Source: Ureaplasma parvum serovar 3 str. ATCC 27815 (GTDB taxonomy: Bacteria; Bacillota_I; Bacilli_A; Mycoplasmatales; Mycoplasmoidaceae). Taken from it: a DNA stretch of 32,000 bases. The position numbers and the translations under genes were made by a program. Shown here piece after piece: positions 29,951 through 32,000 of this stretch (positions are counted from its first letter, which is position 1; every line of letters begins with the position of its first letter). The stretch is from positions 510,001-542,000 of the forward strand of contig NC_010503.1 in assembly GCF_000019345.1 (NCBI RefSeq). The letters are read 5' to 3'. The notes beneath the pieces were generated by a model, which worked only from the letters and a program-made list of their open reading frames with translations, made no database searches and was not told the DNA's origin.

Positions 29951-29971
29951 TTTAATCCTTAAATTTTTAGT

Positions 29972-29997
29972 TATATATATATATATATATATATATA
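29972..29997 (+). repeat. (TA)13 dinucleotide repeat immediately upstream of paralog B
   Basis: I counted 13 uninterrupted TA units directly (29972-29997). The final A is the A of ATG 29997-29999. The repeat fills 26 of the 46 nt between the two paralogs. Confidence 0.95.
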
Positions 29998-32000
29998 TGA
30001 AAGTAAATAAAATAATTATGAAAAAAAGAGTTAATAAAATATATAAACACAATATGTTTATTTTGCTAGCTACTTTAAATTTAGTGTGAGCAGGCGTTAT
30101 CACAGGAATTGTTTTAAGACTAAAAAGTAAAGATTACTCAAAGCATACTATCTTAAAAAAATATTATTCATTTGATAAAAACGGCAATTTAATTCTTAAA
30201 GGTTATTTAAAACCACATGATAATACTAATTATGTTTTTGGGATTTTTAGCGATGAAAGCAATCAAGAACATAAAATTCAAGCACTTGTTAATGATAAAA
30301 AAGGATTTGAATTTAACACTAAATCATTACCACTAAACCATAGTTACAAACTTAAAAAAGTTACAAGTATTAATGACTATAACCATGTTTTATTAACAAA
30401 TGATGATTTAGTTAGTCAGCAAAAAATTTGTTTTAGTAAGCCAGTTGATGCAAAAGTTAACTTTATTAATAATAAAAAAGTTTATCAAGTTAAACTAAAC
30501 ACGTTATTAAAAAACACTTTAATTCAATTAACACTAAAAGACTTAGAGCATAACGTATATAAAATTACAGCCAAATCAAATGATATGGGAGAAGTTAGTT
30601 TTGATGTTTCACAATTAAAAAATAATAATTTATATGAGGTAATTGCTTTACAAACACAAGACCAAACTAAAATCGTTAATGTTAATGAGATTGAATACAA
30701 CAATAAGATCATAAATAATTTAAATATTGATGAATTAAATACACCATACCAATATAGCAAAAATGGTCATCTTAACTTAATTGCTAAGATACCATTACGC
30801 TATGCTAATGAACAAGTCTATGGTGTTTTTGAAGACCAAAATAACCAAAAACATTTAATTCCTGCCGTAAATAAAAATGATGGAACAATAATGTTTGATA
30901 CTCAAGTTTTAACTAAAAATCCCAATAAAAAATATCATTTACAAAAAGTTGTTTTAGCAAAAAATCAAAATCAAATTTTAATACATAATTTTGATTTAGT
31001 AAGTAATCAAAAACAAGATATCTTCTTAAAAGAATATAAAGTTATTAGTATTAGTGCTCTAGAAAATGATGCTGATAAAACTAAAAGAGAAATCAATTTA
31101 AAACTATCTAACATAAAAAATGACTGAGTTAATAAGCAAATTAAAGTTATTTATTCAAGTTCAGATGGTTCAGATGTTCAAACTCAACCTTTAGTTTTAG
31201 AAAAAAATCAAACAAACTATGTATTAAAACTAAATAATTTAAAAGCAAATCGTTTATATACACTAAAGGCGGTTGAATTAATAAATAACAATGGTAAAAC
31301 TAATTTACCATTAGATACTAACTTAACTAATAGTTTTATGGTTGAAAGAACTAGTGCTGTATTAGCAACAAGTATTAGTGAAATAAGTAATCGTTTGGGA
31401 ACTGCTTTAACGAATGCACAAGTTAAAATCACTTTAAAAGATGTGGATAATGTTTTATTAGCTAATCAAAAAGCGATTATTAACTATGGTAATAATCAAA
31501 AGAGTGAAGCAACTGTTATTGTTAACAATGGTGTTAAGTATCTAATAGCAACCTTAACTAAATTAACATTAAATACGCCTACAATAATTAAATCCATTAC
31601 ATTTGAACAAAAACCAACATGTGCTATTGAAAATATTGGGTTAGATAAAACAAATAACATTATTTATCAAAATACACATGAAGCAGCAATTCCTTTAGTA
31701 ATTAATAATAATTTTGAAATCAATGGGCCATTAGCATCAAGTCATGAAAGTTTAAAAAGTATTAATGCATCTGATGCTAAAAAGGTAAATGCAATTAATT
31801 TAACCCTTGACTTTAATACCAATGAACATATTTATAAAAATTTATTTTTTAAACTAAAATATGTCCCTATTGACGATCAAGGTAATGAAAATATTTATGA
31901 CGCATCAGAAGCAATTTATAGTGATGTTTTAAGTGCAAATAATATAATTGCTAATAAAATCCAATTTAGTTTAGGTAATTTACAAACTAATCGTAAATAT
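29997..32000 (+). CDS. N-terminally membrane-anchored modular surface protein, paralog B (3' end beyond the window, at least 668 aa)
   Basis: The reading frame is open from ATG 29997 (alternative ATG 30018, same frame) to the window end, with only TGA codons interrupting it. The N-terminus MKVNKIIMKKRVNKIYKHNMFILLATLNLVWAGVITGIVLRLKS aligns with paralog A. It shows the same module-end motifs: SYKLKKV, KYHLQKV, NRLYTLKAV, NRKY. Confidence 0.8.

Follow-up and report, generated by a model that had tools for sequence, protein, structure and literature searches.

The window analyzed in this study is a 32,000-nucleotide (nt) stretch of Ureaplasma parvum DNA with a G+C content of 25%, in which long open reading frames (ORFs) appear only with translation code 4 (TGA read as tryptophan). 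Toward its right end lie two tandem, co-oriented genes on the + strand, designated gene A and gene B, and the gap between them contains a perfect run of alternating T and A that continues into the start codon of gene B. The sequence, position, and variability of this run, referred to here as the TA tract, suggest that it is probably a new contingency locus of the simple sequence repeat (SSR) type. The genes and the parts of the tract are as follows.

27623 to 29950, + strand: gene A, coding for a DUF1410 membrane protein of 775 amino acids (aa) with an N-terminal anchor (code 4); stop codon TAG at 29948 to 29950
29951 to 29971, + strand: noncoding left flank of the tract, tttaatccttaaatttttagt, defined from the sequence and from cross-assembly comparison
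29972 to 29998, no strand: pure alternating T/A run of 27 nt, defined from the sequence, Tandem Repeats Finder, and 17 assemblies
29997 to 29999, + strand: ATG1, whose A and T are the end of the tract; supported by N-terminal homology and by gene calls in ENA (1313 aa)
29997 to 32000, + strand: gene B, coding for a DUF1410 membrane protein and truncated by the end of the window (1313 aa in assembly L003)
30018 to 30020, + strand: ATG2, in frame and 21 nt 3' of ATG1; used in NCBI annotations (1306 aa)

The products of genes A and B are paralogs (BLASTP E = 6e-14) that share a match to Pfam DUF1410 and an N-terminal membrane anchor, ...LNL(I/V)WAGVI..IVLRLK. Gene A was called in the same way, with 775 aa, in assemblies L003, L004, L009, L012, and L014. 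The N terminus of protein B, MKVNKIIMKKRVNKIYKHNMFILLATLNLVWAGVITGIVLRLK, has no lipobox cysteine, and no solved relative of protein B was found in the PDB.

The run at 29972 to 29998 comprises 13.5 copies of TA and was reported by Tandem Repeats Finder with a period of 2 and 100% matches. A first-order Markov model predicts 1.6e-9 runs this long per window, 300 simulations gave alternating runs of at most 16 nt, and the second-longest real run in the window is 8 nt. It is also the window's only dinucleotide run with at least 5 units. The TA repeat pointed out in the initial annotation is thus real and nonrandom. That annotation had described (TA)13 as filling a 46-nt gap and abutting the start codon. 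The repeat and the length of the gap between TAG 29948-29950 and ATG 29997 were confirmed; the gap (29951 to 29996) consists of tttaatccttaaatttttagt (21 nt) followed by 25 nt of the tract. However, the tract overlaps ATG1 rather than merely abutting it, because the A and T that close the run are the first two bases of that codon. The 26-nt (TA)13 counted at first takes in the A of the ATG, and the 27-nt run takes in both the A and the T. No RNA family in Rfam was matched within positions 27000 to 30600.

Both ATG codons proposed for gene B were found to be in frame. ATG1 is the favored start, because the N terminus that it gives (MKVNK..., of the form MKxN..K) and the length of the resulting tail both fit those of its paralogs, A (MKSNNK...) and P0001 (MKNNKK...). 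It is geometrically possible that the length of the tract decides which of the two codons serves. A clear Shine-Dalgarno sequence precedes 9 of 11 neighboring genes, whereas gene B has none before either ATG1 or ATG2, and the TA tract takes the exact place that the Shine-Dalgarno sequence has in the neighboring genes. This geometry, in which a repeat merges into a start codon that no Shine-Dalgarno sequence precedes, is unusual.

Variation in tract length among strains

In order to compare the locus among strains, 17 independent assemblies of U. parvum and Ureaplasma urealyticum were examined, consisting of the window and 16 further assemblies (L003 to L012, L013, L014, L017, L020, L022, and L024). 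In all 17, the run was uninterrupted, was located in the same place, ended in the ATG, and had 5 to 16 units, with lengths of 11, 11, 11, 15, 15, 17, 19, 21, 21, 23, 23, 23, 24, 25, 27, 29, and 32 nt. A scan of metagenomes recovered a single additional allele. A copy number fixed in all strains had been set in advance as grounds for giving up the idea of a regulatory repeat; copy number proved to be variable, within conserved flanks.

Differences in length were found between close relatives. The window and the metagenome-derived assembly L005, which are 12 substitutions apart across 15 kb, have 13 and 9 units, respectively. A neighboring protein of L005, P0001, is identical to one of U. parvum serovar 3 ATCC 27815, and the window is assigned to U. 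parvum on these grounds. Assemblies L010 and L011 have 10 and 12 units, and L006 and L008 have 8 and about 16. The shortest allele, of 5 units, was common to three assemblies that are up to 51 substitutions apart, and its retention over that distance is consistent with slippage that depends on tract length. Mollicutes are not known to have mismatch repair, the lack of which makes such tracts unstable.

The sequence around the tract is much more stable. The 21-nt left flank had two variable positions (T29966C and G29970A) in 11 aligned assemblies, and a further variant of it, …cttaatg, was found in L008 and L014. The first 130 nt of gene B had seven variable positions even across both species, which differ from each other at about 8 to 10% of positions in the flanking region. 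The gap between genes A and B ranged from 30 to 51 nt. The same gene order at the locus was found in 16 assemblies; an 83-aa ORF (27082 to 27333) and yqeH encode identical proteins and are in the same order in many U. parvum and U. urealyticum assemblies. The length of the tract evolves much faster than the surrounding sequence, and its position is the same in two species.

Transcription and predicted folding of the tract

Three elements in the vicinity of the tract bear on its transcription.

27355 to 27399, + strand: intrinsic-terminator hairpin with U-run, located after the 83-aa ORF (-15.7 kcal/mol; z-score, -3.8)
29938 to 29965, + strand: weak promoter-like pair, TTTAAA (29938 to 29943) and TAAATT (29960 to 29965) with 16 nt between them (8/12 matches; candidate)
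30004 to 30013, + strand: -10-like hexamers TAAATA (30004 to 30009) and TAAAAT (30008 to 30013), between ATG1 and ATG2, read from the sequence

The absence of a terminator between the two genes, as claimed in the initial annotation, was borne out: the terminator scan of the window detected none between genes A and B, and the fold z-score there was -0.56. The tract itself was considered as a terminator for gene A and rejected, because no U-run follows its hairpin. The hairpin at 27355 to 27399 had been missed by the standard terminator scan because its stem has few G-C pairs. With this strong terminator before it, gene A is expected to open the transcription unit in which the TA tract lies, and since no terminator follows gene A, the tract is expected to be present in an A-B mRNA by read-through. 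Thus, from the sequence, the TA tract is most likely transcribed.

A second route of transcription could be provided by the TTTAAA/TAAATT candidate pair. Its spacing is independent of tract length, its predicted start (about 29972) is the first base of the tract, and it scores below the cutoff of the standard promoter scan. The -10-like hexamers at 30004 to 30013 are resembled by AGTAAATAAA, which comes after a poly(T) tract upstream of gene A.

The hairpin predicted for the tract RNA has a stability of 0 kcal/mol at 7 units or fewer, -6.8 kcal/mol at n = 13, and -10.3 kcal/mol at n = 16 (where n is the number of TA units). AUG1 is located in the foot of the predicted stem, and its probability of being unpaired falls from 0.5 to 0.23 as the tract lengthens. 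AUG2 is predicted to be about 70% unpaired whatever the length of the tract. The flanks of the tract are partly complementary and extend the palindrome to 33-nt arms with 73% complementarity. The hairpin computed for the tract as DNA has a stability of 0 kcal/mol for 5 to 8 units, -4.4 kcal/mol at n = 13, and -6.8 kcal/mol at n = 16; cruciform extrusion or easy melting, both suggested in the initial annotation, is plausible for long alleles in these models.

Two substitutions in the flanks, T29966C and A30005G, were found together in L007, L008, L011, and L014, and a 4-bp ATTY/RAAT helix (29963 to 29966 with 30005 to 30008) that closes the tract hairpin would be retained with both. This covariation was discounted as evidence for the hairpin, because the two substitutions form one linked haplotype and hence count as one event.

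Repeat tracts upstream of other DUF1410 genes

Each of the six DUF1410 genes with a visible 5' end has a length-variable tract upstream.

Gene A: poly(T)15-19, some 70 nt 5' of the start codon; in the window, poly(T)16 at 27538 to 27553, + strand, with 15 to 19 T in other assemblies (L003 to L024, about 10457 to 10500 and 13556 to 13600)
DUF1410 gene P0001: poly(A)18 or poly(A)19, 49 nt before the ATG (L001, 9934 to 9951; L002, 9933 to 9951)
Giant DUF1410 gene: poly(T)9 versus poly(T)15, upstream (L006 and L008, about 940 to 1000)
Two DUF1410 genes on the U. urealyticum contig L015: poly(T)17 and poly(T)14, upstream (2374 to 2390 and 5906 to 5919, respectively)
Gene B: (TA)5-16, overlapping the ATG

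The homopolymer tracts of P0001, the giant gene, and the L015 genes are located 50 to 100 nt before the start codons, and a -10-like box lies within a few bases 3' of each of them. Some 27 other genes of this DNA, two lipoprotein genes outside the DUF1410 family among them, had no such tract upstream. In about 75 kb of nonredundant DNA, long tracts were found only 5' of DUF1410 genes, within a type III mod gene, and, in one case, upstream of an hsdS fragment. Nonrandom placement of this kind is a classical signature of contingency loci.

Several observations concern gene A itself. Its poly(T) module is duplicated whole (64 bp) upstream of the gene in L020. An extended -10-like sequence, TGTTAAAAT, is located at about 27490 to 27498, upstream of the poly(T) tract, and the tract may therefore lie in the 5' untranslated region (UTR) of gene A rather than in its promoter. 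Within the part of gene A that codes for the N terminus, a run of T8 (27674 to 27681) is T7 in L005; the resulting frameshift is followed by restoration of the frame by an additional T about 400 nt later. The difference between T7 and T8 in L005 could be real slippage or an assembly error.

Possible roles of the tract

SSRs upstream of Mollicute surface-protein genes are a well-known kind of element, and all three sequence features of the SSR contingency class were found at gene B: a long and perfect repeat, a position at the 5' end of a surface-protein gene, and a length that is variable between close strains. That tract length has any effect on the expression of gene B is somewhat more likely than not. 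The more specific reading that we favor, and put forward tentatively, is that the tract is a slipped-strand contingency repeat that sets the amount of the DUF1410 surface protein B in human ureaplasmas. That the effect would be exerted mainly at the level of the RNA or the start codon is possible but doubtful.

According to this favored reading, the tract would be transcribed at least within the A-B mRNA and perhaps also from the weak promoter that ends just 5' of it. The transcribed tract would then form the whole leader directly 5' of AUG1 in a gene without a Shine-Dalgarno sequence. The (UA)n repeat would pair with itself, with bases of AUG1 in the 3' base of the hairpin. With alleles of 7 units or fewer, the start codon would stay open, and every extra unit would make the hairpin about 1.2 kcal/mol more stable. 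A more stable hairpin would progressively lower initiation or redirect it, for example to AUG2, or it might leave the RNA open to processing. The tract would act as a dimmer and not as a switch that varies the spacing between -35 and -10 boxes.

A parallel to such a mechanism is found in the hmw1A and hmw2A genes of Haemophilus influenzae, in which a heptamer SSR in the transcribed 5' UTR forms a hairpin that is processed by RNase III, as shown experimentally (PMC12721329). As in hmw, the SSR of gene B would lie between the likely promoter and the start codon, its predicted hairpin becomes firmer with repeat number, and a graded output, as opposed to an on/off one, would be expected. However, in hmw a 7-nt unit pairs with a G-rich arm, whereas at gene B the UA repeat would pair with itself, in a hairpin that is computed only, and the two host organisms are unrelated. 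The tracts at gene A, P0001, and the giant DUF1410 gene recall the vlp family of Mycoplasma hyorhinis, in which each member has poly(A) in its promoter, according to the account of Citti and Wise 1995 given in PMC10502178. In both cases, a family of surface proteins has a hypermutable tract of its own upstream of each member, which would permit combinatorial expression, but gene B has a dinucleotide tract at the start codon and the vlp homopolymers are in the promoter spacer.

Several points weigh against the favored reading. The length variation is variation between strains, as represented by consensus assemblies, rather than variation within clones, and the allele lengths are broadly and evenly spread, as would also be expected of a neutral microsatellite. 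A hairpin paired by A:U alone is weak, and the whole folded region is no more stable than shuffled sequence (z-score, -0.56). The tracts that the paralogs share could in part have been inherited with duplicated 5' regions and not selected. The literature searched contained no transcription start, RNA, or protein data for gene B. In addition, there is a cautionary case in the same genus. Rocha and Blanchard 2002, as cited in PMC3047005, proposed a slipped-strand switch in the (AT)9 between UU171 and UU172, but site-specific DNA inversion was shown to drive the phase variation at that locus (PMC3047005).

The UU171/UU172 case resembles the present one in that a poly-AT tract is located between two variable surface-protein genes of Ureaplasma. 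The TA tract is not the same element, because the UU171/UU172 genes are of the MBA type, are oppositely oriented, and are roughly 100 kb away according to contig positions. An inversion of the MBA type at the locus was also rejected, because the putative recombinase site ACTTTYTCTSTTTGATAATTMAAAT (25 nt) is absent from the window with up to 3 mismatches allowed. The only inverted repeats found are low-complexity, AT-rich ones.

Of the alternative explanations, two are serious rivals to a start-codon mechanism. The first is that the tract is a neutral hypermutable microsatellite, which slips freely in AT-rich DNA without mismatch repair and has no meaningful effect on gene B, which would simply be coexpressed with gene A. 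The even spread of lengths over 5 to 16 units, with no favored "ON" length, is what such a microsatellite would give. No canonical promoter involves the tract, the fold of the region is unexceptional, and the (AT)9 of UU171/UU172 illustrates that poly-AT beside a variable gene is not necessarily what switches it (PMC3047005). However, free slippage would not readily account for the distribution of long tracts over the approximately 75 kb examined, nor for the retention of this tract, unbroken, in 17 of 17 assemblies of two species with such divergent flanks. The tract also occupies the place of the Shine-Dalgarno sequence of neighboring genes. It seems somewhat unlikely that the tract is without effect.

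The second serious rival is an effect at the level of the promoter, as envisaged in the initial annotation. In its classical form, gene B would have a promoter of its own in which the tract is the -35/-10 spacer or the source of the -10 box, and changes in the number of units would toggle transcription or shift its start between ATG1 and ATG2. The tract was scanned for such promoters with alleles of n = 3 to 18, -35/-10 spacings of 16 to 18 bp, and 12 hexamer positions scored. No pair spanning the tract had more than 8 of 12 matches at any n. Spanning pairs with both A2 and T6 of the -10 box had 8/12 and appeared only at n = 3 to 4, alleles that were seen in no strain. The standard promoter scan listed no promoter at the tract. 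The suggestion that TATATA could serve as a -10 box in any register was not upheld, because neither TATATA nor ATATAT ever gives a TAnnnT core, the former ending in A where the -10 box has its conserved T. The proposed -35-like element TTTAGT is not conserved between haplotypes; it reads TTCTTAAT in L007, L008, L011, and L014. Furthermore, the tract extends into ATG1 (0 nt to ATG1 and 21 nt to ATG2), which leaves no room 3' of it for a -10 box, a transcription start, a leader, and a ribosome-binding site. A spacer would also be predicted to have one or two permissive lengths, and the strains cover a 21-bp range.

The known promoter-spacer switches to which the tract had been likened differ from it in several respects. 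In the hifA/hifB fimbrial switch of H. influenzae, which van Ham reportedly described in 1993, a TA repeat is said to be the shared spacer of the overlapping promoters of two divergent genes. Like hif, the present locus has a (TA)n repeat that varies by units beside genes for surface structures, but genes A and B are in tandem on the + strand and the tract is not a spacer. In the Vmm and Vmc lipoproteins of the Mycoplasma mycoides cluster, (TA)n is located in the promoter spacer, according to citations of Persson 2002 in three later papers (PMC2628566, PMC3053259, and PMC10502178), and (TA)n promoter-spacer switches are thus established in Mollicutes. Gene B shares with Vmm a Mollicute host and a perfect, strain-variable (TA)n of similar size (10 to 16 units) just upstream of a surface-protein gene. 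However, the Vmm tract separates -35 from -10, with the -10 box, the transcription start, and a leader 3' of it, whereas the gene B tract enters the start codon and lies inside the 30- to 51-nt gap of a probable two-gene operon. The products also differ, a 1313-aa anchored DUF1410 protein in the case of gene B and a small lipoprotein with a lipobox in the case of Vmm. Of the three defining features of the Vmm-type spacer switch that were evaluated (a promoter spanning the tract, leader elements after it, and a small lipobox lipoprotein), none was found.

There are additional arguments for a promoter switch. The tracts of other DUF1410 genes are located a few bases upstream of -10-like boxes. 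A -35-like TTTTTA is fixed in the left flank, and at n = 5 an 18-nt spacer would lead from it to TAAATA, with a transcription start near ATG2. With the same TTTTTA as the anchor, the -10 box would be TATATA at n of at least 11, and the start would be predicted to fall on ATG1 at about n = 14. Such an arrangement would suit leaderless mRNAs and might explain the missing Shine-Dalgarno sequence. Weighed against the results of the scan, these arguments leave a classical promoter switch improbable.

Least likely by far is that the tract is a DNA structure element, in which long (TA)n would act as a cruciform, an unwinding element, or a fragile site on supercoiling, replication, or recombination among DUF1410 genes rather than directly on gene B; the perfect palindrome reaching into partly complementary flanks, the stability of the DNA hairpin at n = 13 to 16, and a rearrangement beside gene A in one assembly (L021) would fit such an element, but the common 5- to 8-unit alleles form no stable hairpin, no rearrangement breakpoint was found at the tract itself, and the L021 junction is inside gene A and is possibly an artifact of metagenome assembly.

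If the favored reading of gene B were to extend to the family, ureaplasmas may have a second, repeat-driven system of variation beside the MBA/UU172 inversions, which are known to be driven by a recombinase. In such a system, each large DUF1410 gene would have a tract of its own, the genes would be expressed in stochastic combinations, and at gene B a (UA)n hairpin and leader fused to the start codon would dim or redirect initiation. This wider proposal appears rather unlikely as it stands. U. parvum and U. urealyticum are leading causes of chorioamnionitis and, in infants born preterm, of lung disease, and the persistence of these two species is credited to one antigen system, MBA and UU172, which varies by DNA inversion. 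The DUF1410 proteins rank with the largest surface proteins predicted for both species and have no known function. Control of each DUF1410 gene by a hypermutable tract would make the antigenic repertoire larger and more combinatorial, which would need to be taken into account in serology and for vaccine targets. DUF1410 genes are not described as variable in searchable papers. SSR control of these genes in Ureaplasma is likewise undescribed in the searchable literature, although Rocha and Blanchard 2002 may list this tract. The tract appears to be a solid lead for antigenic variation in Ureaplasma, but it would involve no new principle unless both the start-codon hairpin and the family-wide system hold. 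As a dinucleotide repeat over a start codon that lacks a Shine-Dalgarno sequence, the TA tract offers a compact test of how repeats other than promoter spacers control expression in minimal bacteria, and it is usable as a high-resolution marker for strain typing.

The two long tracts that are not associated with DUF1410 genes are in or near restriction-modification genes. A run of (AG)11 in L001 (13558 to 13579) is (AG)9 in L002 (13558 to 13575), inside a type III restriction-modification methyltransferase gene that is located about 10 kb past the right end of the window. This gene is intact (529 aa) in one sample and split into ORFs of 124 and 360 aa in the other. Type III methyltransferase genes are known to be a phase-variable kind of gene, and such phasevarion repeats have already been surveyed in the Mycoplasmataceae (PMC5909438). 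In U. urealyticum, a poly(A)16 (L008, 19178 to 19193) is located about 40 nt before an 87-aa fragment of a type I restriction specificity gene (hsdS).

In the metagenome-derived assembly L021 (13664 to 15374), gene A is reduced to 123 aa, and a 381-aa ORF connects it with the giant DUF1410 gene, which lies on the opposite strand. This assembly lacks gene B, P0001, and the type III restriction-modification genes. Either about 17 kb were deleted or rearranged between DUF1410 paralogs, or the region is misassembled.

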